From a virus (Duplodnaviria; Caudoviricetes), in the IMG/VR virus record IMGVR_UViG_3300031689_000003, positions 1-60,325 of that record: a stretch of 60,325 nucleotides of DNA; one strand, given 5' to 3'. The notes under the pieces are model-generated. The model was given only the letters and a program-made list of their open reading frames with translations, ran no database searches and was not told the DNA's origin. This document shows, in pieces, positions 1 to 13,116 of this stretch (positions are counted from its first letter, which is position 1; the number at the start of each line of letters is the position of its first letter). The translations under genes and the position numbers were made by a program.

Positions 1-819
1 AATTCAGATATCGCACAGTTAACCAAGAAAGACAAAGCTAACTTACTATCTGTCATAGATGGTTATGCAAGCCAATTCACTATCGGAATGGAAGTAGAGA
101 AATCTCAGATGTATAGAGGAGCAGTTAAGCAATATGCATTATTCGCAGGATTTGAGAGAGATTCTTCCTGCGGATATGAAGCAGTAACACATATCTTACC
201 TTTAATACCTAAAGGTGTTTGGAGGAACAAAGTGTATTCTATGATGCACGATGCAAAGAAAGTTATCGAGGATGCATATTCACCAAGTGACTATAGATGT
301 GGCGGTCACATAACTGTTGCAGTTGATGGATTAGATGGTGATGACATTCGTAAAGCAGTACGTAAAAATATGGGTGTAGTTTATGCCCTATTCAGAAAGC
401 GTTTAGGTAATAGCTATTGTAATGGTAACTTACTAATGACTGATAGCGGTAGCGGAAGATACCAAAGTGTATTAGTTAAGAGAAATGTTTTAGAGTTTAG
501 ACTTGTATCAAGGTTTCAATCTGTAAAGCAAATGATGAGAAGATATGAGTTAATCTATGAGTTACTTAATTTCTCTATCAACAATCCAAACGGAAGCCAC
601 AATGCTTTTCTTAAGAAAGTTACACCAATCATTAAATCTATGTATGGAGGTGATATGGAGAAAGTAGCTACAATCATTGACTTAGCTAAAGGATTTAGAA
701 AGTATATGATTAGCGGTAAAGTAAATCGTAAAGTAATTGATTTCGTTGACCCAATGAGAAGACTGAATGCAGATGTCTCTTACGATAGAGACTTACTAAC
801 TAACGGATATAGGGAGTAA
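1..819 (+). CDS. Putative amidoligase (COOH-NH2 ligase, glutamine-synthetase-like fold); 5'-truncated by window edge
   Basis: Frame 1 is open from base 1. Motifs FTIGMEVEK, RDSSCGYEAVT, CGGHITV and VLEFRL match the GxExE...DxS...E...CGxH...EFR pattern of phage amidoligases. Confidence 0.7.
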   Translation, partial: NSDIAQLTKKDKANLLSVIDGYASQFTIGMEVEKSQMYRGAVKQYALFAGFERDSSCGYEAVTHILPLIPKGVWRNKVYSMMHDAKKVIEDAYSPSDYRCGGHITVAVDGLDGDDIRKAVRKNMGVVYALFRKRLGNSYCNGNLLMTDSGSGRYQSVLVKRNVLEFRLVSRFQSVKQMMRRYELIYELLNFSINNPNGSHNAFLKKVTPIIKSMYGGDMEKVATIIDLAKGFRKYMISGKVNRKVIDFVDPMRRLNADVSYDRDLLTNGYRE

Positions 820-827
820 TAATGAGT

Positions 828-853
828 AGAGCACGCATACGGTAGCGTGCTCT
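828..853 (+). other. Stem-loop immediately 5' of hammerhead 1
   Basis: AGAGCACGC-ATACGGTA-GCGTGCTCT, perfect 9-bp stem just after the stop codon at 819. Confidence 0.75.
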
Positions 854-906
854 TTCTGTCTACAGGTGATTGCCTGTACTGATGATTCATAAAGATGAAA
901 CAGAAA
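853..906 (+). ncRNA. Type III hammerhead ribozyme 1 (predicted cleavage after GUC, C860)
   Basis: Stem III TTTCTGT(853-859)/ACAGAAA(900-906); stem I TACAGG-TGATTG-CCTGTA; core CTGATGA 879-885; short stem II TC-ATAAA-GA; GAAA 897-900. Confidence 0.88.
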
Positions 907-922
907 CTTAAAACCTTTAATT

Positions 923-1135
923 ATGAAATTAGTATCAAATTGTGCGAAGTTAGCAATAGTGCTTTACGGAACTATGCTATCATTTATGGTAACAAGATTA
1001 CTGTACGAACTAAGTAATGAAGTAGAGTCTTTAACAGACTTATTCTTCTTTACTACCATAACCTTATTCCTTGGTTTATTAATAGGATGTGCAAGTACGT
1101 TAATCTATAAAGAAGTATCTAAAATCAAAAATTAA
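923..1135 (+). CDS. Small membrane protein (2 hydrophobic segments)
   Basis: ORF track; two hydrophobic stretches; AATT-ATG start. Confidence 0.65.
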   Translation: MKLVSNCAKLAIVLYGTMLSFMVTRLLYELSNEVESLTDLFFFTTITLFLGLLIGCASTLIYKEVSKIKN

Positions 1136-1137
1136 TT

Positions 1138-1269
1138 ATGAAGAAATCATTCAAAGTATTTAGCAGATTGATGGCAATATCATTCGCCATAGTAATACTA
1201 ATAAACCTAATGTCTTGCGGAAGTAGCAAACAATGCAAGAAGCTACCTACCTATGGTTGGTACAAATAG
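1138..1269 (+). CDS. Tiny lipoprotein 1 (43 aa, not in ORF track)
   Basis: MKKSFKVFSRLMAISFAIVILINLMSCGSSKQCKKLPTYGWYK: basic N-terminus, hydrophobic core, LMS-C lipobox. Confidence 0.75.
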   Translation: MKKSFKVFSRLMAISFAIVILINLMSCGSSKQCKKLPTYGWYK

Positions 1270-1378
1270 GCTCAAATCCGACATACTCAGCTATCAAGAG
1301 GTAGCTGAAAGTGTCTTAGGAGTCGTTTGTGAAAGCCGATTTTCGGCAAAATCACTAATAATCACTAATAACAAGCAA

Positions 1379-1543
1379 ATGGAGCAACAAAGCTATTATA
1401 AGGTAAGATACGCAGGAAAACTAATTAAGGTTGTAACTGCCCATTCAAAATGGCAAGCTATCGATATTATTTACGAGAAGAACAAATCGCAATTCCCTTG
1501 GATAATAAGACAAAAATTAACCGCAGTAAAATATAAAAACTAA
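1379..1543 (+). CDS. Hypothetical protein (probable start MEQQSYY)
   Basis: 3' part of ORF 1253..1543; the upstream part overlaps lipoprotein 1 and a structured spacer. Confidence 0.55.
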   Translation: MEQQSYYKVRYAGKLIKVVTAHSKWQAIDIIYEKNKSQFPWIIRQKLTAVKYKN

Positions 1544-1546
1544 ATT

Positions 1547-1687
1547 ATGAAGAAATCATTAAACCAAGAACAAGCAATGTTAAGAGCAGCAGCAATAGTA
1601 TTTGCTATGATAATGTTAATCAGTCTATCTTCTTGTGGCAGTACATCGTGTACAACTCGAGCAGGTAACTATAATACAGTTAGATAA
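1547..1687 (+). CDS. Tiny lipoprotein 2 (46 aa, not in ORF track), paralog of 1138..1269
   Basis: MKKSLNQEQAMLRAAAIVFAMIMLISLSSCGSTSCTTRAGNYNTVR: LSS-C lipobox; TAATG overlap with next gene. Confidence 0.75.
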   Translation: MKKSLNQEQAMLRAAAIVFAMIMLISLSSCGSTSCTTRAGNYNTVR

Positions 1688-1881
1688 TGGCAGATGCATA
1701 TACAGAGCAAGCGATTTATAATTATTTTAAAACGCAAACGGAAATGGAATGTGACAAAGTTTATGATACGGGAGCACACGAGATAGTAATATTTATAAAC
1801 GAGCAGGAGGTTATAGAATGCCTAAACAATGCCTGCGATTACAATATTTATATGCCAATAGAAACTACTAATATTAATTAA
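1687..1881 (+). CDS. Small acidic hypothetical protein
   Basis: ORF track; translationally coupled to upstream gene. Confidence 0.6.
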   Translation: MADAYTEQAIYNYFKTQTEMECDKVYDTGAHEIVIFINEQEVIECLNNACDYNIYMPIETTNIN

Positions 1882-1891
1882 AATCAAATCA

Positions 1892-2128
1892 ATGGATTCA
1901 AAATTTAAGTGGACAGAAATTAAAGTACAACGTTATGCACAATTCTATTGCAACAATAGTAAGTGGTTCAGTTACAATGCAACTGAGAAATCAACACAAA
2001 CTATGGAAGCATTCAAGGAAGCATACAAGTTCAGAGAAGTTTACAATGTCAATACAGATGTAAGCGAAGCATTAAAAACCCTAAAGAGAGAAGGGTATAA
2101 AGTATCTCTCTCACTTTCAGAAAGGTAG
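1892..2128 (+). CDS. Hypothetical protein
   Basis: ORF track; AAATCAAATCA-ATG leader like neighbouring genes. Confidence 0.6.
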   Translation: MDSKFKWTEIKVQRYAQFYCNNSKWFSYNATEKSTQTMEAFKEAYKFREVYNVNTDVSEALKTLKREGYKVSLSLSER

Positions 2129-2135
2129 ATGGCAG

Positions 2136-2167
2136 TTAGGCTATGTCTAAATTTTGTCGTATCTTTG
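2136..2167 (+). promoter_or_regulatory. Early promoter, Bacteroidota -7 box TATCTTTG with upstream TTAGG-N3-TGTCTAAATT
   Basis: TAnnTTTG at 2160-2167; same upstream motif and spacing recur at 4042-4073. Confidence 0.7.
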
Positions 2168-2188
2168 TATAAATCAAATCAGAGGTCT

Positions 2189-2204
2189 GTGTCTTCAAAG
2201 ACAC
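2189..2204. repeat. 16-bp dyad motif copy 1
   Basis: GTGTCTTCAAAGACAC between the promoter and the ATG at 2226. Confidence 0.9.
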
Positions 2205-2225
2205 TCCTCACAAATCAAATCAATT

Positions 2226-3317
2226 ATGTGTATTATTATTATCAAACAAAAAGGTAATGTGATGTCAAGAGAAATCGCAAAGACATCATCAAAAATTAAT
2301 CCTCACGGATTAGGAATCGTTTGGCTCGATACGTTCGAGGTAACTTATCACGAATCCAAAGAGTATCAGCAGTTACTTACTACACGTCCGTTTATCGCAC
2401 ACTTTAGATATGCTACAGTAGGTAAGGTAGGATTATCAAACACGCATCCATTTGTATGCGGTAAGAACAAGGATGAACTATTAATGCAGAATGGAACTAT
2501 CAGAGGGATAGGAACAGATGAGATGTGCGACAGTAAAGTATTAGCTATCTCACTTGGAAACATTAAGAGGCAGGATTGGAAGAGAGAACTTGAGCAATAT
2601 GACTCAAGGTTTTGTAGTGTAAACTTACGCACACGTTCATTCCAAATTTATAATCGTAACCTATATACTTATAGAGATGGCGTTTGGTATTCTAAAACAA
2701 ATGTATTGCAGGACAATTTGGTTGCGGTGTACGGAACTCTTAAGAAAGGTTTTGGTAACTATAATGCATACCTTACAAACTCAAAGCATTTAGGTAGCGG
2801 AGTAACAAACGAAAAGTATCCATTGGTTGTTGATGGATTACCTTACCTGCTACCACAAGCAGGTGTAGGTCACAATGTAAAGGTTGATGTATTCAAAGTA
2901 AGTGATGTAACGTTCAAGAAGTTAGACCAACTTGAAGGACATCCAAGATGGTACAAGCGAAAGCAAATAGAAATTAATATGGATGGCAAGCCAAACCTAA
3001 CTTGTTGGGTTTACTTTAATCCTAAAGTGGTTGACCCAAGAACAGAATTTGTTCAGTCATTTGAGTATAGTCCATACCAAATGCAACAAACTGTAGGAGA
3101 TGTGCAAGATGACTGCACAACTGAAACTGATGAAGCACCATTAATAAATCATTATCAATATGACTTTGGTTGGGATGACAATGACTTTCCAACTAATGAT
3201 ACACCAACGTGTATTGATTGTTACAATGATGTAGAGCACGATGGATTTAGTAATTATTATTGTTCCTCTTGTGGTGGGTGGTTCAAGGAAGACGAGGTCT
3301 TGAAGTATCAAGAGTAG
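2226..3317 (+). CDS. Class II glutamine amidotransferase fused to gamma-glutamylcyclotransferase (AIG2-like) and a C-terminal Cys4 Zn ribbon
   Basis: True start is MCIII (Cys2 Ntn nucleophile). GATase-II motifs: HFRYAT, NTHPF, QNG, CDS. GGCT motifs: VAVYGTLKKG.N, LDQLEGHP.WY.R. C-terminus has CIDC...CSSC. Confidence 0.85.
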   Translation: MCIIIIKQKGNVMSREIAKTSSKINPHGLGIVWLDTFEVTYHESKEYQQLLTTRPFIAHFRYATVGKVGLSNTHPFVCGKNKDELLMQNGTIRGIGTDEMCDSKVLAISLGNIKRQDWKRELEQYDSRFCSVNLRTRSFQIYNRNLYTYRDGVWYSKTNVLQDNLVAVYGTLKKGFGNYNAYLTNSKHLGSGVTNEKYPLVVDGLPYLLPQAGVGHNVKVDVFKVSDVTFKKLDQLEGHPRWYKRKQIEINMDGKPNLTCWVYFNPKVVDPRTEFVQSFEYSPYQMQQTVGDVQDDCTTETDEAPLINHYQYDFGWDDNDFPTNDTPTCIDCYNDVEHDGFSNYYCSSCGGWFKEDEVLKYQE

Positions 3318-3329
3318 TCTAAAAGGGTA

Positions 3330-3345
3330 GTGTCTTCAAGGACAC
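3330..3345. repeat. 16-bp dyad motif copy 2, within extended hairpin 3324-3351 preceding hammerhead 2
   Basis: GTGTCTTCAAGGACAC; AGGGTAGTGTC-TTCAAG-GACACTATCCT. Confidence 0.9.
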
Positions 3346-3350
3346 TATCC

Positions 3351-3401
3351 TCCGTATCAAGATGTTTGTCTTGGCTGATGATTCCATAAGGATGAAACGG
3401 A
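3351..3401 (+). ncRNA. Type III hammerhead ribozyme 2 (predicted cleavage after GUA, A3356)
   Basis: Stem III TCCGT(3351-3355)/ACGGA(3397-3401); stem I TCAAGA-TGTTTG-TCTTGG; CTGATGA 3375-3381; stem II TCC-ATAA-GGA; GAAA 3394-3397. Confidence 0.88.
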
Positions 3402-3418
3402 AACTTAAATTAAATTAT

Positions 3419-3637
3419 ATGTCACCAAAAATTAAAGAAGCTATAGCAGTTTTAAACAAGGCAGGATATGTAACATCATTATGGCACATTAGCGATGTAC
3501 AGAACAACTACGTATGCACCATATCTGAGGCAGAACTTATCTTGGAAGAGGTACTATCGTGCGAACACACAACACAAATTATTAACGAAGCTATCGATTA
3601 CGAAGCTGAACAAAAAGAATTAGAATGTCAAGAGTAA
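3419..3637 (+). CDS. Hypothetical protein (probable start MSPKIK)
   Basis: 3' part of ORF 3362..3637; the upstream part is the ribozyme. Confidence 0.6.
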   Translation: MSPKIKEAIAVLNKAGYVTSLWHISDVQNNYVCTISEAELILEEVLSCEHTTQIINEAIDYEAEQKELECQE

Positions 3638-3771
3638 CTAAGAGTACAGAGATTATTCAAATGTTGGAAAAAACTATCAACAGAGGAGGGGATGAAAAAA
3701 CAATCATCACACTCAAAAGAAAATTAAAAGAACTTAAAAAAAATCATACAGATGGCAATAGTACAGAATGA
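3625..3771 (+). CDS. Small hypothetical protein (48 aa, MSRVTKSTEII...)
   Basis: Manual translation; fills the gap and overlaps both neighbours. Confidence 0.45.
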   Translation: MSRVTKSTEIIQMLEKTINRGGDEKTIITLKRKLKELKKNHTDGNSTE

Positions 3772-4045
3772 ATTAATAACGTTAAAAGATGGGTTTAATT
3801 GGTACAAACTGAATGAAGTTCAAGCCTACAAATGTTGGAATGAATCAGTATTTGAAATATACGCAGTTTTTGACGATGAGACTGAGAGTTTATTAGAATC
3901 GTTAGAGGAAATTAAAGAAGCATTTGAGCAAAATACTGCCGTTTGTATGGCAGTAGGTCAGGCTAAACCTAAACCTTGGTTTCATCAGGCTAAAAAAACC
4001 CTGATATCAGGACATTGGTACGTAAAGGTATCAGACATAAATTAG
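3752..4045 (+). CDS. Hypothetical protein
   Basis: ORF track. Confidence 0.6.
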   Translation: MAIVQNELITLKDGFNWYKLNEVQAYKCWNESVFEIYAVFDDETESLLESLEEIKEAFEQNTAVCMAVGQAKPKPWFHQAKKTLISGHWYVKVSDIN

Positions 4046-4073
4046 GTTTTGTCTAAATTAAGTGTTACTTTTG
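4042..4073 (+). promoter_or_regulatory. Early promoter, -7 box TACTTTTG with TTAGG-N3-TGTCTAAATT
   Basis: Same architecture as 2136-2167. Confidence 0.7.
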
Positions 4074-4100
4074 TTTAATCAATCAGTAAAATCAAATCAA

Positions 4101-4301
4101 ATGAGCGAATACACACCACCAAAAGACGTAAAAGAAATTCAGAACGCAAGTTTAGAGCGTATCAACGAAATTGTTATGGACTCTAATTGGTCGAATCCAC
4201 TAACAATGCGTGCTTGTTTTGACAGAGCACTTGAGTTAGGATACGATGGAGGATTTCCAATATCTTTATATTACAACCTTAAACGAAACATTAAACTTTA
4301 A
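4101..4301 (+). CDS. Hypothetical protein (probable start MSEYT)
   Basis: ATG after AAATCAAATCAA leader, downstream of the promoter. Confidence 0.6.
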   Translation: MSEYTPPKDVKEIQNASLERINEIVMDSNWSNPLTMRACFDRALELGYDGGFPISLYYNLKRNIKL

Positions 4302-4311
4302 ATTAAATCAA

Positions 4312-4554
4312 ATGGCAAAGCTATTACAAGCAGACGGTATAACAAGAGTAGGAGCAGACGTGAGCACTCTTGAGAGTATGCAAAAATTAGTAGGAGGATA
4401 CATAGAAATGGTTCACCTAAATGACGGACAAGTACTTGTCTGTAACGAGGAAGGTTTATTATATGGTCTTCCATTTAATATTAATGCGTCAGAATTAGCA
4501 GGCCTACAAATTGTAGGTGATGCTATTTTATGTGACCGAAACGAAATAAGATAA
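4312..4554 (+). CDS. DUF3846-like protein
   Basis: TLESMQKLVGGYIEMV...LVCNEEG...LPFN...IVGDAI pattern. Confidence 0.7.
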   Translation: MAKLLQADGITRVGADVSTLESMQKLVGGYIEMVHLNDGQVLVCNEEGLLYGLPFNINASELAGLQIVGDAILCDRNEIR

Positions 4555-4557
4555 ACT

Positions 4558-4905
4558 ATGAAACATTTTTTAAGAGACGAAATTATTGCTCAGAAATTTG
4601 GCAATCCAAACAACACCAAATATATCCAACGCCTACAACAGATGTTGGATATGCCTGCATATAGTCAGAAAAATTTTGCAGACACGGGTATGATAACAAC
4701 AAAGAAAGATTTTTTATCTTCTTATGCAACACCACCTACACTACATAAAACGTGTACAGATGTTATAAAGTACATAGGAGGTCACTACATTCAGATGCTT
4801 AGCAGCGGTAAATATTTGCTGAAGTATAATGAAGAGAGAGGTAAGAACTCAAAGGACTTAGATAAACTTGAAGCAATCATTTTTAAAACAATAAACAATG
4901 AGTAA
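4558..4905 (+). CDS. Hypothetical protein
   Basis: ORF track. Confidence 0.6.
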   Translation: MKHFLRDEIIAQKFGNPNNTKYIQRLQQMLDMPAYSQKNFADTGMITTKKDFLSSYATPPTLHKTCTDVIKYIGGHYIQMLSSGKYLLKYNEERGKNSKDLDKLEAIIFKTINNE

Positions 4906-5263
4906 AGAAAAAATCATTTCAGTTACAGACGAGGTTCGTGATATGCTAATACAAAAAAATGAGGCTTATGGGAACTCAGCACTTAAACCGATAAACGTTT
5001 TTAGTAAAGGTAATTCCGCTGAATCATTATGTGCAAGAATAGATGATAAGTTAGCAAGAATACAAAACGTAGGTATAACAGACGAGACAGAAGATACTTT
5101 GTTTGACTTAGCAGGTTACTTAATACTACTTATCATAGCATTAAAAACAGAAGAACAAAATCACAATGAAGAAGTGGTAGGACTAACTGACCATTATTTT
5201 AAATTTCACAGTAACGATACAATAAGAAAAAGAAATGCGGAAAACGAATTCGGACAATCATAG
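4898..5263 (+). CDS. DUF1599 / nucleotide-modification-associated (all-alpha NTP pyrophosphohydrolase-like) protein
   Basis: KNEAYGNS...RIDDKLARI...EDTLFDLAGYLIL pattern. Confidence 0.7.
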   Translation: MSKEKIISVTDEVRDMLIQKNEAYGNSALKPINVFSKGNSAESLCARIDDKLARIQNVGITDETEDTLFDLAGYLILLIIALKTEEQNHNEEVVGLTDHYFKFHSNDTIRKRNAENEFGQS

Positions 5264-5387
5264 GACAGACTCTTCAACAAGAGCAAGGGTGTCTTCAAAG
5301 ACACTAAATTGCAACAAGCTATTAACAGAACTATTTGAATCATTTGGCGAGCAATATCAGACCAAATTAAATAAAGAATTAAAATGA
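5235..5387 (+). CDS. Small hypothetical protein (50 aa, MRKTNSDN...)
   Basis: Manual translation; ATGA overlap with next gene. Confidence 0.45.
   Translation: MRKTNSDNHRTDSSTRARVSSKTLNCNKLLTELFESFGEQYQTKLNKELK
5289..5304. repeat. 16-bp dyad motif copy 3
   Basis: GTGTCTTCAAAGACAC. Confidence 0.9.
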
Positions 5388-5686
5388 AATTAGATATTTT
5401 TAATAAGTACGTAGACGAGGTGTGTAACCTTTTCAACATAGACGAAGAGACATTATTTATAAAATCAAAACGAAGAGATATAGTGGATGCAAGACATCTA
5501 CTATATTATTTGTGTTATACAAGACCAATGAGAATAGTTTATATACAAGAGTATATGGCAGACAGAGGTTACACAATCAATCACTCCTCTGTAATCCACG
5601 GTATCTCTATTGTCGGAAAGAAACTCGACAATGATACGGACTACGTGAAGAGCGTAAAAGACATACAGAAATGGCACTTAGTTTAG
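5384..5686 (+). CDS. DnaA C-terminal (domain IV)-like HTH protein 1
   Basis: VCNLFNI.EE.L..KSKRRDIVDARHLLYYL...NHSSVIHGI resembles the DnaA_C signature. Confidence 0.7.
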   Translation: MKLDIFNKYVDEVCNLFNIDEETLFIKSKRRDIVDARHLLYYLCYTRPMRIVYIQEYMADRGYTINHSSVIHGISIVGKKLDNDTDYVKSVKDIQKWHLV

Positions 5687-6102
5687 AAGACATATTCCAA
5701 CAAGCAAAGCAAGATGATTACTGCGTAGAATTAAACGGTAAGGGTTATCAAGCAAGGCTTGTATACGGAATCAAGATAGTAAAAGATAATGAGACAGAAG
5801 AGGTTGTAATCTATAACACCGCAGTAAACGGAAGTTATTATCATATCATCCCAACAGAGACCATTAAAACATTTACAGAAAACTCTTGGAGATACGGAGT
5901 ATATAATTTATCTTTGTCTAACTATCGCACAAAACTCGACATGATTGAGAAGAGAATCAAGACAGAAATCAACGGCAGGAAGTCGGAGAAACAAATCGCA
6001 GGACTCAAATCACATAGAGAAAGAATCCTCGGCAAGTACACCGAAGTAAATCAAAAATTAAATCAATTAAATTCTAATCACAATGAAACAAGTAAAAACT
6101 AA
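5671..6102 (+). CDS. Hypothetical protein with C-terminal coiled coil
   Basis: ORF track. Confidence 0.6.
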   Translation: MALSLEDIFQQAKQDDYCVELNGKGYQARLVYGIKIVKDNETEEVVIYNTAVNGSYYHIIPTETIKTFTENSWRYGVYNLSLSNYRTKLDMIEKRIKTEINGRKSEKQIAGLKSHRERILGKYTEVNQKLNQLNSNHNETSKN

Positions 6103-6733
6103 GGAACTGACTACCTTTGAAAAATTGTCAGCAATCAATGTCAACTCAAAAGTTGAGAAGAAAAACAATCTAACTTATTTATCTTGGGCGTGGGCTTGGA
6201 GCGAAGTAAAGAAAGCGTGTCCCGATGCAACTTATCAAATGGGTGAGACAGAATATGATGAAGCACTTGGCTTTATGTGTCACACGTCTGTATGTATTGA
6301 AGGTGAAACTTTAGAGATGTGGTTACCCGTAATGGATGGAGCGAACAAATCTATGAAGAAGGTAGGTTATAAGTACACGACTCGTTATGGAGATAAAGAA
6401 GTAGCAGCGGCTACAACTTTTGATATCAACAAAACAATGATGAGGTGTTTAGTTAAAAACTTAGCTATGTTCGGTTTAGGTATTTATATTTATGCAGGAG
6501 AAGATATGCCTGCATCTGATGAAGTTGTAATGGTAACTGTTCCTCCCGTTGCAGTAGCAGTAGGTAAGAAATTATCTCTTAAGAAAGGTGATGGAGCATA
6601 TGCTAAAGTAATGGCCTATGCTAAAGAAAATAAAGCACAAGGAGCAAAGAGGTTAGTTGATATGGTTGCACTTAAGTATGCGATGACTAACGTTATTAAG
6701 ACTGAAATAACTAATATTGTAAATTCTAAATAA
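6083..6733 (+). CDS. sak: Sak (Rad52-like, DUF1071) single-strand annealing protein
   Basis: VEKKNNLTYLSWAWAW...LPVMD...INKTMMRCLVKNLAMFGLGIYIYAGED. Confidence 0.88.
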   Translation: MKQVKTKELTTFEKLSAINVNSKVEKKNNLTYLSWAWAWSEVKKACPDATYQMGETEYDEALGFMCHTSVCIEGETLEMWLPVMDGANKSMKKVGYKYTTRYGDKEVAAATTFDINKTMMRCLVKNLAMFGLGIYIYAGEDMPASDEVVMVTVPPVAVAVGKKLSLKKGDGAYAKVMAYAKENKAQGAKRLVDMVALKYAMTNVIKTEITNIVNSK

Positions 6734-6734
6734 T

Positions 6735-7472
6735 ATGTTAGAAGATAAAATATTAGAGAAGTTAAGAGACGATAAGCAGTACTACGGTAAGTTTGGTAAA
6801 ACCTATATGAGTAATTCAGACATAGGAACTTTACTTAACAATCCTACAGAGTATGGAGTTAGTCTTCCTGACAATGCAAACTTTGCAAAAGGAAGATACT
6901 TTCATCAACTGATACTTGAACCATCTAAGGCGAAGGATGTAGTTTTTGTAAAATCCTCATCGAGGAATACTAAACTATACAAGGACTATATTGCAGAAGA
7001 AAATTTGGAATTTGCTTTATTAGAAAAAGAGGGAGAGGAAATCAGAGGTCTTGTAGATAAGATGATGAGTAACCTTGATATGTATGATATGATACGTGAC
7101 CCTAACAATGAGTATGAAGTACCTGCAATCGCAGAGATTAAGGGTAAGATGTGGAAAGGTAAGGCTGACATCGTAGGTAAGGATATGCTTTATGATATCA
7201 AAACAACATCCAAGATTTCAGATTTTAAATGGTCAGCATCTCGTTATAATTATGACTCGCAATGTTACATATATCAGAAGCTATTCAATAAGCCTCTTAT
7301 CTTTTTAGTAATTGATAAGCCTACGGGAATGATGGGTGTGTATAGACCAACTGAAGAGTTTATAAAGAGAGGTGAATTAAAAGTAGAGAAAGCTATAGAG
7401 GTACACGATACTTTTTTTAGTGAGAAATCAACTGAGGATATATCAGCATTTTATTATGATGAGTTTCTTTAG
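6735..7472 (+). CDS. PD-(D/E)XK exonuclease (RecE/DUF3799-like)
   Basis: SNSDI, GRYFHQLILEP, KGKADI...DIKTT, YNYDSQCYIY; adjacent to sak. Confidence 0.82.
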   Translation: MLEDKILEKLRDDKQYYGKFGKTYMSNSDIGTLLNNPTEYGVSLPDNANFAKGRYFHQLILEPSKAKDVVFVKSSSRNTKLYKDYIAEENLEFALLEKEGEEIRGLVDKMMSNLDMYDMIRDPNNEYEVPAIAEIKGKMWKGKADIVGKDMLYDIKTTSKISDFKWSASRYNYDSQCYIYQKLFNKPLIFLVIDKPTGMMGVYRPTEEFIKRGELKVEKAIEVHDTFFSEKSTEDISAFYYDEFL

Positions 7473-7617
7473 AAAATTAGTGTCTTTAAGGACACAAAGG
7501 CGTGTGTTATGGTTTAACGTTCCAATGAACTGCAACACTCGTAGGGAGAGAGAGATTCTAATCCTAAATACCATAGAACTATTGGAGCAAAATATAAACA
7601 TTACTAAAATCAATTAA
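7456..7617 (+). CDS. Small hypothetical protein
   Basis: 3' part of ORF 7420..7617 from the first ATG. Confidence 0.45.
   Translation: MMSFFRKLVSLRTQRRVLWFNVPMNCNTRREREILILNTIELLEQNINITKIN
7480..7495. repeat. 16-bp dyad motif copy 4
   Basis: GTGTCTTTAAGGACAC. Confidence 0.88.
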
Positions 7618-7619
7618 TT

Positions 7620-7919
7620 ATGTCACAAAACGTAGAAAAAGTATTTGCAGATGGATTCTCATTCAAGAGAAGAGAAGGTGCTCCCGAGTTTGTTATCGGT
7701 AGACAATCAATCAAGGTAGATGAAGCAGTAGCCTTCCTGAAAGCCAACGTAAAAAATGGTTGGGTAAACATAGATATCAAACAATCAAAGAAAGGAACTT
7801 TCTATTGTGAGTTAGATACTTGGGAAGCTAAGCCACAAACATCAGCACCTACAACTGCAGAACTTGCAGCGACTGCACCTGCACCTGCACCTACAACTGC
7901 AGATGATGTACCATTTTAA
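7620..7919 (+). CDS. Single-stranded DNA-binding protein (putative)
   Basis: Compact beta domain, A/P/T linker, acidic tail DDVPF; follows sak and exonuclease. Confidence 0.72.
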   Translation: MSQNVEKVFADGFSFKRREGAPEFVIGRQSIKVDEAVAFLKANVKNGWVNIDIKQSKKGTFYCELDTWEAKPQTSAPTTAELAATAPAPAPTTADDVPF

Positions 7920-7945
7920 CAAACAAGTTTAAGCTTGTTTTAATT

Positions 7946-7975
7946 GGGGAGGTTGTAAAAACCCTCCCCTTTTTT
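7946..7975 (+). terminator. Intrinsic terminator
   Basis: GGGGAGG...CCTCCCC followed by T6. Confidence 0.85.
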
Positions 7976-8010
7976 ATCTCTAATAGTGTGTCGTATTAAC
8001 CAAAACATTA

Positions 8011-8150
8011 ATCCCTACTACCACAAGGAAGATATACTATAATATTTTTTCTTTACATATTACATAGTAATAATAGACATTAACGGCATCTATACTGATT
8101 ATCAATTACTTACAACTATTTAATTAACATAAATCGACAACAAAATGACA
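8011..8150. repeat. Origin-like element copy A (homologous to 58857-59010)
   Basis: Shared blocks ATCCCTA, ATACTATAATATT, ATAGACATTA, WATCAATTASTTACAA, AAATCGACA. Confidence 0.65.
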
Positions 8151-10574
8151 TATAACGTCACAATCTTTAAGAATATCAAGGAAACTGAAGCACCTTTCCA
8201 CAGAGAACTATCTGTTGTGCTCAATAGAATAAAGGATGGAGCAACAAAAGACTTAGTAAAAAAGATTCGTATTGAGACTAACAAGTCTGAACGAAACGAA
8301 TTAAAAAAGAAATTACCTGCTATTTGTTTTAGTGGTGTATTCAATAAAAGAAATGATTCTTCACTAATGGAACATAGTGGAATTATTTGTTTGGACTTCG
8401 ATGGTTATCCAAAGAAGAAAATATTATTAGAACATAAAAACACCTTGACAAATAATAAGTTTGTATACTGCGTGTTTATATCTCCATCGGGAAATGGACT
8501 TAAAGTTTTAGTCAAAGTACCAACTGATGTAGATAATCATAAAAACTATTTCAATTCATTAGACAGACACTTTGCATCTGAATACTTCGACAAGATGTGT
8601 AGCAATGTATCTCGAGTTTGTTATGAATCATATGACCCTTTACTTCATATAAACGAAGATTCTCTTTTATGGGATAAGATAGAAGAGCCTGAGTATGTTG
8701 CAGTAGACCAATCAAGAGATGCACCAAGTATTCCAATTACAGACGAGAATAAAGTAGTAGAGATTTTAGTAAAATGGTGGTGTAAGAAATATCCAATGGT
8801 TGAAGGTCAACGAAACCAAAACGTTTTTATTCTTGCAATGGCATTCAATGACTATGGTATTAACAAGTCTCTTGCAGGATATGTTCTTGGTCAATACATA
8901 ACTGCGGACTTCACGCAGTCAGAGATTAATAGAACGATTGATTCAGCGTATGCAAATACATCAAACTTTGCAACTAAATACTATGAAGATGAAGAGAGAA
9001 TTAATTCTATAAAGACCAAGTTAAAAAGAGGAGTATCAAAAAAAGAAATTCGCTATCAGTTACAAGAGTCAAACATTGATAGCGAGACAATAGAGTCAGT
9101 ACTTAATCGTGTAGAGAAAGAAAATTCTGTTGCTAACTTTTGGACTAAGACAGACAAGGGAGTTATAAAGATAGTTCACGTATTATTCAAGCAATTCCTT
9201 GAAGATAATGGATACTATAAGTTTTGTCCCGAGGGAGGGAAAAGTTATGTGTTTGTATGTGTTACAAACAATTTAATATCTCATACATCAGAGAAAGAAA
9301 TAAAGGATTTTATACTTGGACACTTAATTGATTTGGATGACTTAAGTATTTACAATTACTTCGCTGATAATGTAAGGTACTTTAGAGAGGAATTCCTGAC
9401 ACTTCTTGGAACAATAGACATCTACTTCATCGCAGATACTAAAGAGTCTTCTTATCTATACTATAAGAATTGTGCGGTTAAGATAACTAAAGGTGGAATA
9501 GAGTCGATTGACTACTTAGACCTTGGAGGTTACGTTTGGAAAGACCACGTTATAGATAGAGTATTTACTGAATGTGTTATCGCAAGTGATTACAAGACAT
9601 TCATATCAAGAGTATGTGGAGATGATGAAGCAAGAGTAAAGACAATGGAATCAACGATTGGGTTTATGATGCACGGTTATAAAAATCTAAGCTATTGTCC
9701 TGCCGTTATATTAAATGATGAAATTATATCAGACAATCCCGAGGGTGGTACGGGTAAAGGAGTTTTTATGAATGCATTGTCTCAGATGAAAAAGGTAGTT
9801 ATTATAGATGGTAAGCAGTTTGCTTTTGAGAAAGCATTCCCTTATCAAACCGTATCTGCCGATTCTCAGATATTAGTATTTGATGATGTAAAGAAACACT
9901 TTGACTTTGAAAGATTGTTTTCAGTAGTAACTGAAGGGTTGACACTCGAAAAGAAAAATAAAGATGCAATCTCTATTCCGTTTTCTAAGTCACCTAAAAT
10001 TGCAATAACAACTAACTATGCTATAAAGGGTTCGGGTAATTCATTTGCACGTAGAAAGTGGGAGATAGAGTTATTCCAACACTATAACAAAAACCATACT
10101 CCTCTTGATGAGTTTAAGAAACATTTCTTTGCTGATTGGGATGATGAAGATTGGTGTGGGTTTGACAACTATATGATTTATTGTTTAAAGAATTACCTGT
10201 CTACAGGATTAGTCAAAGGAAAGTTTGTCAACTTAAAGGTAAGACAATTATCTGCTGAATCATCACACGATTTTATTGAATGGTGTGGGTTAGTTCAAGG
10301 CCATCAGCCACATACTTCATTGCAAATTAATGCAAAGATTATGAAGCAAGACTTATACTTCGACTTCATCGGAGAGTATCCTGACTACGGGCCGAAAGCT
10401 AAGATGACAATATCAAGAACTCGTTTTTATAAATGGTTGGTAAGTTATGCTTTGTTTACTACCGGGCAGCAACCGGAAGAAGGAAGAGACCCATCCGGTA
10501 GATGGATGATAATAAAGCCAAGAGTATTGCCAACTTCAACACAATCAGAAATGTTTGATGCAAATGGAAACTAA
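8145..10574 (+). CDS. Primase-helicase (BT4734/VirE-N-like primase domain, PriCT-1, P-loop helicase)
   Basis: KKKLPAICFSG, HSGIICLDFD, FISPSGNGLKVLV, NVSRVCYESYDP; EGQRNQNVFILA (PriCT); Walker A PEGGTGKG, Walker B ILVFDD. Confidence 0.88.
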   Translation: MTYNVTIFKNIKETEAPFHRELSVVLNRIKDGATKDLVKKIRIETNKSERNELKKKLPAICFSGVFNKRNDSSLMEHSGIICLDFDGYPKKKILLEHKNTLTNNKFVYCVFISPSGNGLKVLVKVPTDVDNHKNYFNSLDRHFASEYFDKMCSNVSRVCYESYDPLLHINEDSLLWDKIEEPEYVAVDQSRDAPSIPITDENKVVEILVKWWCKKYPMVEGQRNQNVFILAMAFNDYGINKSLAGYVLGQYITADFTQSEINRTIDSAYANTSNFATKYYEDEERINSIKTKLKRGVSKKEIRYQLQESNIDSETIESVLNRVEKENSVANFWTKTDKGVIKIVHVLFKQFLEDNGYYKFCPEGGKSYVFVCVTNNLISHTSEKEIKDFILGHLIDLDDLSIYNYFADNVRYFREEFLTLLGTIDIYFIADTKESSYLYYKNCAVKITKGGIESIDYLDLGGYVWKDHVIDRVFTECVIASDYKTFISRVCGDDEARVKTMESTIGFMMHGYKNLSYCPAVILNDEIISDNPEGGTGKGVFMNALSQMKKVVIIDGKQFAFEKAFPYQTVSADSQILVFDDVKKHFDFERLFSVVTEGLTLEKKNKDAISIPFSKSPKIAITTNYAIKGSGNSFARRKWEIELFQHYNKNHTPLDEFKKHFFADWDDEDWCGFDNYMIYCLKNYLSTGLVKGKFVNLKVRQLSAESSHDFIEWCGLVQGHQPHTSLQINAKIMKQDLYFDFIGEYPDYGPKAKMTISRTRFYKWLVSYALFTTGQQPEEGRDPSGRWMIIKPRVLPTSTQSEMFDANGN

Positions 10575-12027
10575 TGTAATAGAAAGACGAGTCGGCTTTT
10601 CAAATGAGATGATGTTTAATCAATGCTCTTTGTTAGCCGAAATCGTTAATAAAACAAAAGAGGTAAAGGTAGGTCGAGGCAAAAGTGTACAAGTAATTAC
10701 TCAAAAAATGTATACAACAAGTAGCGAGGCTATAGATAAAATAAACAGAAGCGTTCAACATTACAAAGAACTAATGGAATCTAAAGAAACAAAAATAAAA
10801 TTAAGAGATTATCAGAAACAAATTAGCAGAGATGGGTGCATAAAGTTATTCAGCAATGGATTTGTATATCTTGCTATGGAGGTAAGAACGGGAAAGACAC
10901 TAACAAGTTTAAGTATGGGTGTACTAATGGGATGTAAGAACGTATTGTTTGTTACAAAAAAGAAAGCTATCAGTAGTATTGAATCTGATTATAATCTTCT
11001 TGCTCCTGACTATAACATCACGGTAATAAACTATGAGAGCATACACAAATTACCCGAGTCGGGTAATTACGATTTAATAATTCTTGATGAAGCACATGGA
11101 ATGGGAGCGTTTCCTAAACCAAGCAAGAGGGCTAAACAAGTAAAAGATATTATTAAAAATTATAGCCCCTATGTTATTCTATTGTCGGGTACACCAACTC
11201 CCGAATCATATAGTCAGATGTATCATCAAGTGTATGGAATACCAAAGAATCCTTTTACATCCTTCAAGAATTTTTATAGGTTCTGTGATGAGTATGTTAA
11301 TGTAACCGACAGAAAGATAAATGGCCTAATGATTAGGGATTACTCTAAAGGTCTTGACAAAATTGTAGAAGCAATGAAGCCACATACAATTAGCTATTCT
11401 CAAAAAGAAGCAGGCTTTAAAGTAAATACTCGTGAGCATTTTATGTATGTACCAATGAGCGAATTAACTTATAAGTTAACGGCCAAGTTAAAAAGAGATT
11501 TAGTTATAGAGGGTAAGGAGGAAACTATATTAGCTGATACACCCGTAAAACTTATGATGAAGCTACATCAAATGTTCTCGGGAACGGTTAAGTTTGAGTC
11601 AGGCAACTCTACTATATTAGATTTATCTAAAGCAACACACATCTACGATAATTTTGGTGATGTTAAGATTGGAATCTTCTATAAGTTTAAGGAAGAACTT
11701 AAAGCTTTAATGCAAGTCTATGGAAAAGAAAACCTAACTACAGAACTTAGTGTCTTTGAAGACACAGAAAAATCTATTGCATTACAAATTGTTTCGGGAC
11801 GTGAGGGAATATCTTTACGAAAGGCAAAGGCTTTGGTGTACTACAATATAGACTTTAGTGCTACAAGCTATTGGCAATCAAGAGATAGAATGACAACTAA
11901 AGATAGATTAGAAAGTGATGTGTATTGGATATTTTCAGAGAACGGAATTGAAAAAGAAATCTACGCAGCGGTAAGCAAGAAGAAGGATTATACTGTTCGA
12001 CACTTTAAAAGGGATTTATTATCTTAG
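10555..12027 (+). CDS. SF2 (SNF2-like) helicase
   Basis: LRDYQ, MEVRTGKT, IILDEAH, LSGTP, SGREGISL, QSRDR. Confidence 0.88.
   Translation: MMQMETNVIERRVGFSNEMMFNQCSLLAEIVNKTKEVKVGRGKSVQVITQKMYTTSSEAIDKINRSVQHYKELMESKETKIKLRDYQKQISRDGCIKLFSNGFVYLAMEVRTGKTLTSLSMGVLMGCKNVLFVTKKKAISSIESDYNLLAPDYNITVINYESIHKLPESGNYDLIILDEAHGMGAFPKPSKRAKQVKDIIKNYSPYVILLSGTPTPESYSQMYHQVYGIPKNPFTSFKNFYRFCDEYVNVTDRKINGLMIRDYSKGLDKIVEAMKPHTISYSQKEAGFKVNTREHFMYVPMSELTYKLTAKLKRDLVIEGKEETILADTPVKLMMKLHQMFSGTVKFESGNSTILDLSKATHIYDNFGDVKIGIFYKFKEELKALMQVYGKENLTTELSVFEDTEKSIALQIVSGREGISLRKAKALVYYNIDFSATSYWQSRDRMTTKDRLESDVYWIFSENGIEKEIYAAVSKKKDYTVRHFKRDLLS
11750..11765. repeat. 16-bp dyad motif copy 5 (inside helicase CDS)
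   Basis: GTGTCTTTGAAGACAC, encodes SVFEDT. Confidence 0.9.
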
Positions 12028-12031
12028 CTAA

Positions 12032-12277
12032 ATGGCAACCGAGCAACAGATACAGAGTAAGAGAATTAAACAACTTGAAGAAGAGGGTTATTTTGTTCTC
12101 AAATTAATCAAAACAAATAAGAATGGAATCCCTGATATCCTTGCTATTCCTCCTGACTCCAATGTAATTTTTAGTGAAGTTAAAACACCTCAAGGTAGAC
12201 TATCCAAACTACAAGAGTACAGATTAAAAGAGTTAAAAAAATATGGATTTAGGACAGAAGTATATCGAGGAGAATAG
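12032..12277 (+). CDS. VRR-NUC domain nuclease / resolvase
   Basis: EQQIQ...GIPDILA...FSEVKTPQGRLSKLQ. Confidence 0.85.
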   Translation: MATEQQIQSKRIKQLEEEGYFVLKLIKTNKNGIPDILAIPPDSNVIFSEVKTPQGRLSKLQEYRLKELKKYGFRTEVYRGE

Positions 12278-12596
12278 GTTTCACATAGAAGAATGGTTTG
12301 CCGATAAAATGGTCGGGTTACCTTTTGATACCCAAACAGAAATTATATACTCTATTGCAACTAACGTTCACTCGTTTCCATTAGTGGAGGGTTGGACTCA
12401 AGAAATCTTTGGAGTTGTAAAAGAAGACCATTTATTTTATGCACTTGAATATCTAAATGAAAAGAACGGAATTCCTATTATTTGTGATATAAATTTTATC
12501 GAATCAGACGAATACTTAGACGCTATATTAAATAAAAATACAATTGAATCATATGAAATTAAAATTAAAAAGACATCAGTTCCCAAGAGAAGTTAA
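12243..12596 (+). CDS. Hypothetical protein
   Basis: ORF track. Confidence 0.55.
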   Translation: MDLGQKYIEENRFHIEEWFADKMVGLPFDTQTEIIYSIATNVHSFPLVEGWTQEIFGVVKEDHLFYALEYLNEKNGIPIICDINFIESDEYLDAILNKNTIESYEIKIKKTSVPKRS

Positions 12597-13116
12597 TCTT
12601 ATTGTAAAATTAACGAATGAAAGATTTGGAACGGACTTACAAACGAAAGGCAGAAAACGTAATAGTGTAAACGCACGAATGACTTGTTCTTACATACTTA
12701 GAAGAAGGGGTTTTACATTGACACAGATAGGAAGTTTTTTAGGTAGAGACCACGCTACTATATTGCATTACTTAAAGAATATAGAATGGTATATCAAAAC
12801 AGACTTACAGTTTAACAGAATGTTTACAGAGATAGAAGAAGACTTTAACAGTTCAGCTAATCCCGTGCACGTTATGGGTGTTGAGGAGTTAAAAAAGGAA
12901 GTTTTCTCTTTGAGAAACGAATTAAAAGAATTAGATTTGAGGTTAGAAGGACTAAAAATTGCTCAATCTACGGCTAAAGCAAAGAGTCTTCGAGTAGAAA
13001 GTATCTTTGAAATAGTTAGACAACGAACAAGATTAGGTACAGAAAAAGAAATAGAGAATAAATTACATCGATGGTTCAATGGTGTATACGATAAGCCAAC
13101 AGACCACATTCAATGA
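12544..13116 (+). CDS. DnaA C-terminal-like HTH protein 2 with coiled coil
   Basis: KGRKRNSVNARMTCSYILR...TLTQIGSFLGRDHATILH. Confidence 0.75.
   Translation: MNHMKLKLKRHQFPREVNLIVKLTNERFGTDLQTKGRKRNSVNARMTCSYILRRRGFTLTQIGSFLGRDHATILHYLKNIEWYIKTDLQFNRMFTEIEEDFNSSANPVHVMGVEELKKEVFSLRNELKELDLRLEGLKIAQSTAKAKSLRVESIFEIVRQRTRLGTEKEIENKLHRWFNGVYDKPTDHIQ

Follow-up and report, generated by a model that had tools for sequence, protein, structure and literature searches.

Two type III hammerhead ribozymes between genes of a marine phage genome, in a conserved stop/hairpin/ribozyme/start cassette that may punctuate a long transcript

The window analyzed here is the complete IMG/VR phage record IMGVR_UViG_3300031689_000003 (60,325 bp, 34% G+C), the genome of a marine phage, and its + strand carries two hammerhead motifs, hammerhead 1 (HH1) at 853-906 and hammerhead 2 (HH2) at 3351-3401. 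When considering their motif, structure, covariation, cassette geometry and family distribution, both are genuine type III hammerheads of a subfamily that is common in marine phage contigs, being well-formed but ordinary members of a ribozyme class already known from phages. Quite probably, both ribozymes cut one long + strand transcript, and the cassette in which each of them lies serves as intercistronic punctuation or as an insulator. Self-cleavage in vitro is very likely for HH2 and, with somewhat less assurance, likely for HH1, and a physiological role as transcript punctuation that uncouples neighbouring cistrons is moderately probable. Self-cleavage of HH1 and HH2, co-transcription and a physiological effect are what we infer from the properties described below.

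The Rfam 15 scan of the whole window gives no hits at the gathering score, and at E ≤ 10 the 351-nt stretch 700-1050 gives only chance snoRNA-type rows and no hammerhead. When the 65-nt stretch 848-912 is searched, the RF00008 (Hammerhead_3) model aligns over its full length (1-54/54) at 853-906, with 32.1 bits and an E value of 6e-6, and the 65-nt stretch with HH2 is also aligned full-length, at 3349-3403, with 30.6 bits. HH1 is invisible on 351 nt and yet reaches 32 bits on 65 nt because of the speed filters of cmscan and not because of its score. The search with Rfam hammerhead models that was proposed in a preliminary description of HH1 is, in this way, positive on the short stretch, with nothing at the gathering score. 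The only non-standard pair beside the core that is flagged by RF00008 is 10.1-11.1. Standard Rfam annotation misses both copies, so that phage genome annotations under-report such hammerheads.

A model built from phage copies gives a much clearer separation. Model R2 is derived from an alignment (A4) of 66 phage copies, from which the window and its near-identical relative L033 were left out, and it was searched against the whole window, on both strands and with the filters off. HH1 is found at 853-906 with 60.8 bits (E 2.5e-15) and HH2 at 3349-3403 with 68.7 bits (E 1.2e-17), and the next best match in the 60,325 bases, on both strands, has 11.6 bits. With the family model, R1, HH1 scores 62.4 bits, and the scans with R1 and R2 agree on exactly two copies in the genome. 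All the coordinates given for a type III hammerhead in the preliminary description are right. HH2 was first located by a pattern search for CTGATGA...GAAA; this pattern has seven matches where 1.41 are expected, and five of the seven are no hammerhead by either model. A fixed-spacing pattern with three mismatches has no matches in the window, because HH1 and HH2 differ in length.

The structural features that define the type III fold are present in both copies. The core C3 U4 G5 A6 N7 G8 A9 is found in HH1 (CUGAUGA, 879-885) and in HH2 (CUGAUGA, 3375-3381), and it is invariant in 66/66 relatives except for N7. G12 A13 A14, the A15.1-U16.1 pair and an H17 that is not G are also found in both: in HH1 as GAA 897-899 (GAAA 897-900), A900-U859 and C860, and in HH2 as GAA 3394-3396, A3397-U3355 and A3356; the 15.1-16.1 pair is U-A in 66/66 relatives. 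There are three helices in each, of which stem III is open and the other two, stems I and II, end in loops, as seen in the RF00008 alignments, in the minimum free energy (MFE) fold of HH2 and in the covariation. In HH1, stem III has seven pairs (UUUCUGU, 853-859, with ACAGAAA, 900-906), the cut-site triplet is GUC (858-860), so that cleavage is predicted between C860 and U861, and stem I has six pairs (UACAGG, 861-866, with CCUGUA, 873-878), closed by the loop UGAUUG (867-872). Its stem II region (886-896) is 11 nt long and has the U886-U896 mismatch at 10.1-11.1, the pairs U887-A895 and C888-G894 and the loop AUAAA (889-893). In HH2, stem III has 5 bp (3351-3355 with 3397-3401), the triplet is GUA (3354-3356), so that cleavage is predicted after A3356, stem I is formed by 3357-3362 and 3369-3374 with the loop UGUUUG (3363-3368), and stem II has the mismatch U3382-U3393, then UCC/GGA and the loop AUAA (3386-3389). 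Around HH2, the three ribozyme stems and the upstream hairpin are all recovered in the MFE fold, in which the leader has no pairs.

The standard 10.1-11.1 pair, which served as a filter in the study of Perreault et al. 2011 (PMC3088659; cited throughout from the available part of its text), is lacking in both copies, having U886-U896 and U3382-U3393 in its place. This is treated as tolerated variation, because U10.1-U11.1 is described in that study as a natural variant, more active than any other mismatch there. The setting is also in agreement with known phage hammerheads, as the two copies lie between + strand open reading frames (ORFs), that is, in co-directional intergenic regions with more than one copy per transcript unit.

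The family to which these copies belong was assembled in two ways. A scan of IMG/VR with a core/stem II pattern gives at least 120 matches in at least 118 loci; among the matches listed, 75 (including the two of the window) can be read as type III hammerheads in which stems I and III each have 4 bp or more, and 59 of these are unique. The other listed matches are of type I/II or arise by chance in acidic coding repeats. A model search over 100 loci gives 108 matches, including extra copies in the same contigs, and the set of 79 copies that is used below consists of 77 unique copies from the best 87 of these 108 rows, together with the two of the window. In alignment A2 (59 copies) 89.1% of the cells are paired, and in A4 85.6%, but these percentages are inflated since each row had either passed a pairing filter or been fitted to a model. 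The slid controls, which pair at 33-50% (A2) and 36-52% (A4), the shuffled controls and the many pair types are stronger evidence than the percentage paired. There are 220 double-sided changes in A2 versus 61.8 ± 7.9 after shuffling, and 271 in A4 versus 75.1 ± 8.8, and in neither case does any of the 500 shuffled alignments reach the observed number. Stems I and III covary strongly in both alignments and stem II covaries also; in A4 all cells of stem I are paired (100%), with all 6 pairs covarying, and at the third pair of stem II, C-G, G-C, U-A and A-U are all seen. Loss of the core and of the pairing in homologous phage intergenic regions, which the preliminary description had named as an outcome that speaks against a ribozyme, is not what is seen: the core is kept, and the stems are kept by compensatory changes.

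In these relatives the cut-site triplet tracks the 10.1-11.1 pair (GUA with U-U in 53 copies, GUU with U-U in 5, GUC with G-C in 12 and GUA with G-C in 2), and A-A is found in two copies. G-C occurs in 12/66 of the copies in A4, and the extra copies in the same contigs mostly have the canonical G10.1-C11.1 pair; up to 5 copies are held in about 4.5 kb (L027). The two flavours, GUA or GUU with U-U and GUC with G-C, coexist within the same phage contigs. The consensus loops in relatives are UGNGUR (loop I) and NAAA (loop II), and a loop II with an internal U (AUAA, AAUA, AUAAA, UAUA) goes together with a loop I lacking G at position 4. This hints at a covarying tertiary contact between the two loops, with few independent cases and with exceptions.

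The two cassettes have the following features, given in the order of the window.

1 to 819, + strand: upstream ORF from the ORF list, truncated by the start of the record, with the stop codon TAA at 817-819
828 to 853, + strand: perfect 9-bp hairpin, 828-836 AGAGCACGC with 845-853 GCGTGCTCT and an 8-nt loop at 837-844, seen in the sequence and the MFE fold, abutting stem III
853 to 906, + strand: HH1, type III hammerhead (RF00008 alignment, models R1 and R2)
907 to 922, + strand: leader of 16 nt, A/U-rich, CUUAAAACCUUUAAUU, without a Shine-Dalgarno sequence, with an ACUUAA motif at its start in common with the second copy
923 to 1135, + strand: downstream ORF with its ATG at 923, 16 nt past stem III; 70 aa, hydrophobic, family searches without result
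2154 to 3317, + strand: gene upstream of HH2, a class-II GATase-like N-terminus fused to a GGACT / gamma-glutamyl cyclotransferase domain, with the stop codon TAG at 3315-3317
3325 to 3350, + strand: hairpin of HH2, 11 pairs including G-U, loop UCAA, seen in the sequence and the MFE fold, abutting stem III
3351 to 3401, + strand: HH2, type III hammerhead (RF00008 and R2)
3419 to 3637, + strand: downstream ORF of HH2 with its ATG at 3419, 17 nt past stem III; 72 aa, family searches without result

A second TAA (820-822) directly follows the stop codon of the ORF upstream of HH1. The 9-bp hairpin and the 7-bp stem III of the preliminary description are both present, but T853 belongs to both and had been counted twice, so that the hairpin and stem III together have 9+6 or 8+7 pairs. 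The sequence AAACTTAAA at 904-912 spans the end of stem III and the start of the leader. The leader of HH1 is predicted to be mostly unpaired, as only 907-909 pair in the MFE fold, with bases just 5' of the hairpin. In HH2 the inner stem of the hairpin, GUGUC/GACAC, is common to many relatives.

The arrangement of stop codon, hairpin, ribozyme and start codon, which the preliminary description had claimed for HH1, is conserved over the 79 unique copies, and this geometry identifies the cassette as a real and conserved unit. The 36 nt located 5' of stem III have a median folding energy of -12.0 kcal/mol (n = 78), compared with -3.4 kcal/mol for 1,504 windows drawn at random from these loci, and 62% of the 78 copies reach -8 kcal/mol or lower, versus 8% of the controls. 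In most copies the hairpin abuts stem III without a gap, and it is a conserved component of the cassette. In 62/79 copies an ORF with 60 codons or more ends at a median of 33 nt (interquartile range (IQR) 30-39) 5' of stem III, and an ATG with at least 35 open codons follows at a median of 22 nt (IQR 19-24) 3' of stem III in 73/79 copies. The possibility that the ribozyme is coding sequence is rejected, as the downstream frame is open through the whole hammerhead in just 11/73 copies. In some relatives the place of the hairpin is taken by a conserved motif of some 22 nt with hardly any structure, roughly CCTRAGYAWGAT..AAAACTGC; it is seen in L033:631-666, at the orthologue of HH1, and at the same position in L093, L068, L120, L063, L045, L010, L023 and L099, and it may represent a promoter or a site for a protein.

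The region between stem III and the start codon is also characteristic. A Shine-Dalgarno-like word occurs in just 19/73 leaders. The sequence CTTAA (ACUUAA in the RNA) is found just 3' of stem III in 24/79 copies (30%), compared with 3.9% of AT-rich control windows, an enrichment that is overstated by its p-value since the copies are related. In the window ACUUAA is at 906-911 and at 3402-3407; a pairing partner or a function was looked for, and none was found.

If a single long transcript covers the + strand gene block, then each ribozyme would fold during transcription and would cut itself by internal transesterification, after C860 and after A3356, respectively. The upstream message would end with a stable hairpin and the 5' strand of stem III (6-8 nt through the cut-site base), carrying a 2',3'-cyclic phosphate, and the two products would separate thanks to the short stem III (5-7 bp). 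The downstream message would begin with a 5'-OH and the compact ribozyme body as a cap-like leader, its start codon following about 16-22 nt on in an unstructured, A/U-rich stretch. The cassette would thereby uncouple the stability and translation of the conserved upstream gene from those of the variable small genes behind it. The terms early and polycistronic, which the preliminary description applied to this mRNA, are presumptive and are drawn from gene order. The protection of the upstream 3' end that the preliminary description ascribed to the hairpin is hypothetical, as is any benefit of a 5'-OH end. In RiboJ-type insulators, an engineered hammerhead placed before the ribosome-binding region frees the downstream 5' end from its upstream context; there the hairpin is downstream of the ribozyme, whereas the hairpin of the window is upstream and the element is natural, so the likeness is functional only.

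The idea of transcript processing is not new, as Perreault et al. 2011 described hammerheads flanking genes in prophages and proposed that these process long phage transcripts into gene-length mRNAs. According to the available text of a 2019 review (PMC6765202), the roles of bacterial ribozymes are largely elusive, and mRNA processing by bacterial and phage ribozymes is a suggestion. The clustered hammerheads of prophages and phages in Perreault et al. 2011 are like those of the window in that several ribozymes of the same strand lie on either side of single genes or short blocks of varying identity, while the clusters tested there are from Agrobacterium, Azorhizobium and Clostridium scindens, hosts other than that of the window. 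The fixed geometry of stop codon, hairpin, ribozyme, leader and start codon is measured here and is not found in the available text of that study. The RF00008 prototypes from viroids and satellites have the same core, three-helix junction and open stem III as HH1 and HH2; in contrast, the window copies have U-U for G-C at 10.1-11.1 and a shorter stem II, and they belong to DNA-phage mRNA and not to rolling-circle RNA replicons.

The closest comparison in cultured phages is with the Bruynoghevirus group. Over 47 nt, HH2 has 85-87% identity to 71 Bruynoghevirus-type Pseudomonas phage records, and R1 gives 70.4 bits for the copy of PaP3 (AY078382.2, 45416-45470, minus strand). This copy is like HH2 in being type III, with GUA, a 6-bp stem I, CUGAUGA, UCC/GGA next to U10.1-U11.1 and an A-rich loop II of 4 nt, its loop I being UGUGUG, and from this sequence comparison HH1, HH2 and the PaP3 hammerhead are assigned to the same subfamily. 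PaP3 is among the active core variants in Figure S6 of Perreault et al. 2011, which is the only report found in the literature on the U10.1 variant and on PaP3, LUZ24 and Bruynoghevirus hammerheads; the available text of the LUZ24 ONT-cappable-seq paper (PMC10914365) does not mention a ribozyme or a cleavage site. PaP3 and PaP4 have a single copy, positioned in the leader of their first early gene, whereas the window has two inside a gene block. In PaP3 the start codon of orf71 directly follows stem III, and in PaP4 (L121:234-288) the 3' strand of this stem contains the start codon. A strong upstream hairpin is not seen in the PaP3/PaP4 type (L086, its IMG/VR counterpart), whereas each window copy has a hairpin and a leader of 16-17 nt. 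A related copy with the canonical G-C pair is present in a cultured Elemovirus phage of Flavobacterium (NC_055854.1, 18097-18153, minus strand), 18 nt before a start codon.

With the start codon in or directly after the 3' strand of stem III, as in the Bruynoghevirus copies, cleavage and strand release could unmask the start codon. A bolder proposal along these lines is that hairpin, hammerhead and leader form a portable expression socket of marine Flavobacteriia phages, in which cleavage is required to switch on downstream translation and which also marks the sites where accessory genes are swapped. Cleavage would then free the 3' strand of stem III and give a ribozyme-capped 5'-OH end about 22 nt from a start codon without a Shine-Dalgarno sequence. 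This is rather unlikely; if true, bacterial viruses would have an equivalent of the ribozyme-dependent initiation of translation in fungal and plant RNA viruses that is described in the available text of PMC13725137. The purpose of phage hammerheads has been in question since 2011, and the present group is a clean test bed: its geometry is rigid (stop codon, about 33 nt with the hairpin, 55-nt ribozyme, leader of about 22 nt, start codon), the GUA/U-U and GUC/G-C flavours occur within single genomes, and relatives are carried by cultured phages, namely PaP3 and LUZ24-like phages (Pseudomonas) and Elemovirus (Flavobacterium sp. BAL314).

A different assignment of the hairpin would be as an intrinsic terminator or attenuator, with the hammerhead in the 5' untranslated region of a separately started downstream transcript. 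A loose scan flags 828-853 together with UUCUGUCU as terminator-like, and the hammerheads of PaP3, PaP4 and the Elemovirus lie in the leader of an operon's first gene, as would be expected from this assignment. The hairpin of HH2 is not flagged and has no U run; across the copies the bases after the hairpin are those of the stem III strand (for example CUCCGUA); and hairpin and ribozyme abut, so that there is no promoter-like site between them. A sigma-70 promoter scan of 1-4200 is uninformative, with 15 sites where 17.5 are expected. A Bacteroidota promoter pattern gives 10 matches versus 4.8 expected, none of them near the ribozymes and none on the + strand of 1-12,900, in line with a single transcript of the + strand block. 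As contigs from RNA libraries also run through hairpin and ribozyme, a terminator is very improbable.

Parts of the stretch are contained in 19 public runs, which are seawater metatranscriptomes, and four of these (X1, X3, X4 and X5) were compared as contigs, which cannot show RNA ends. No joints and no end pile-ups are seen in the contigs of these four libraries. In X5 the stretches 825-2206 and 3227-3397 have no contig, and an uncovered stretch proves nothing. It has also been considered that the 2.5-kb RNA between the two cuts (861-3356), having a 5'-OH and a 2',3'-cyclic phosphate, is circularized by an RtcB-type ligase of the host. The end chemistry and the pairing of two ribozymes on one strand are all that agrees with this; spliced or circular products of clustered phage hammerheads were sought by Perreault et al. 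2011 and, in its available text, none were found, and there is no back-joined contig in the four RNA libraries, where contigs would rarely show one. Circularization is hardly to be expected.

Several observations weigh against efficient cleavage, and against transcript punctuation as the purpose of the cassette, in addition to the inflated pairing percentages mentioned above. Cleavage is predicted from sequence for HH1 as for HH2. Both copies are under the RF00008 gathering score of 48.5 bits, which is a curated cut-off and not a structural feature. Contigs of the RNA libraries cross the site of HH1 (X1 442-1141, X4 648-929) as well as that of HH2 (X3 3249-3789, X4 2947-4099), and since both cut sites are bridged, uncut RNA or carried-over DNA is present; complete cleavage in situ is not supported for either ribozyme. 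Among bacterial cases only glmS is well understood, and its cleavage results in degradation (PMC6765202, available text), so that cleavage may destabilize the message. In searches with R2 no copy is found in GenBank MW202828, in Cellulophaga phage phi38:1 or in Tenacibaculum phage Gundel_1, and Cellulophaga phage phi19:3 gives 20.4 bits only; as MW202828 has the nearest large terminase in GenBank (74.7%), the element is dispensable in the clade.

The remaining points against concern HH1, which might be decaying, slow or inactive, with only HH2 at work and 828-906 kept for a hairpin and spacer function. The stem II of HH1, with 2 bp, the U-U mismatch and a 5-nt loop, is the weakest of the 79 copies examined, and in the L033 orthologue of HH1 stem II has 3 bp. 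The ViennaRNA MFE fold of HH1 favours a competing UUCAU/AUGAA helix, which would hide G12-A14. HH1 is the sole copy among the 79 with the combination of GUC and U-U, and its 3' half resembles that of HH2 minus one base and with one substitution, which together suggest an exchange between the two copies. On the other hand, the core of HH1 is intact, stems I and III are perfect and the R2 score is 60.8 bits, and natural active hammerheads with a 2-bp and even a 1-bp stem II are known (Perreault et al. 2011). Decay, slowness or inactivity of HH1 is unlikely when all this is considered.

The genes on the two sides of the ribozymes differ in their conservation. Relatives of ORF 1-819 precede a hammerhead in 14 of the 62 copies with an upstream ORF, and relatives of gene 2154-3317 in 15 of these 62, in both cases in other contigs. 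The ORFs behind the relatives of ORF 1-819 fall into 12 clusters, and those behind the GATase-GGACT relatives into 10; overall, the 73 downstream ORFs fall into 60 clusters and are hypervariable between related phages. The homology of the window with L033 breaks shortly past each ribozyme; past HH2 it breaks after about 45 nt and resumes about 570 nt on. With conserved genes upstream, many clusters downstream and these breaks in homology, the ribozymes are located at junctions of conserved genes and hypervariable small genes. Such junctions would also be expected if the cassette were a boundary at the DNA level, the 55-nt ribozyme and the hairpin being a homology patch for swapping small accessory genes and RNA cleavage being secondary or incidental; the flanked genes are likewise not constant in Perreault et al. 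2011. Homology alone leaves unexplained the compensatory changes in stems I and III, the invariant core and the fixed distances to stop and start codons. As the sole explanation a DNA-level boundary is improbable, and it is compatible with transcript punctuation and not exclusive of it.

The protein of ORF 1-819 had been labelled an amidoligase in the preliminary description, and this label is not upheld: it has no Pfam family at E ≤ 1 and no PHROG support for an amidoligase, the only lead being from a language model, to clusters in which PF12224 (Amidoligase_2) is present in 12-30% of the members. Gene 2154-3317 matches PF06094 at 1.7e-21, PF13230 at 8.3e-5 and phrog_2520. It has an acidic, Cys-rich C-terminal tail and is near the possibly amidoligase-like ORF 1-819. 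The gene trio recalls the amidoligase/GATase/GGCT neighbourhoods of phages.

The large terminase of the window is 45% identical to that of Flavobacterium podophages (Elemovirus) and 32-37% identical to those of Cellulophaga and Tenacibaculum phages, its top match, with 74.7% identity, being from an uncultured spring phage (GenBank MW202828). Judged from these sequences, a host in the Flavobacteriia is likely, which agrees with the leaders lacking a Shine-Dalgarno sequence. A blastn search of 1-4000 of the window against GenBank phages has no matches. The + strand block that holds both ribozymes also holds the primase/helicase and helicase genes, and the structural genes are on the - strand. 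On this structural-gene strand, one ORF of 3,088 aa extends over 13819-23085, with ORFs of 1,468 and 1,413 aa nearby, and a GroEL-like chaperonin is encoded by the phage at 57152-58741 (- strand; phrog_5725, E 8e-130).

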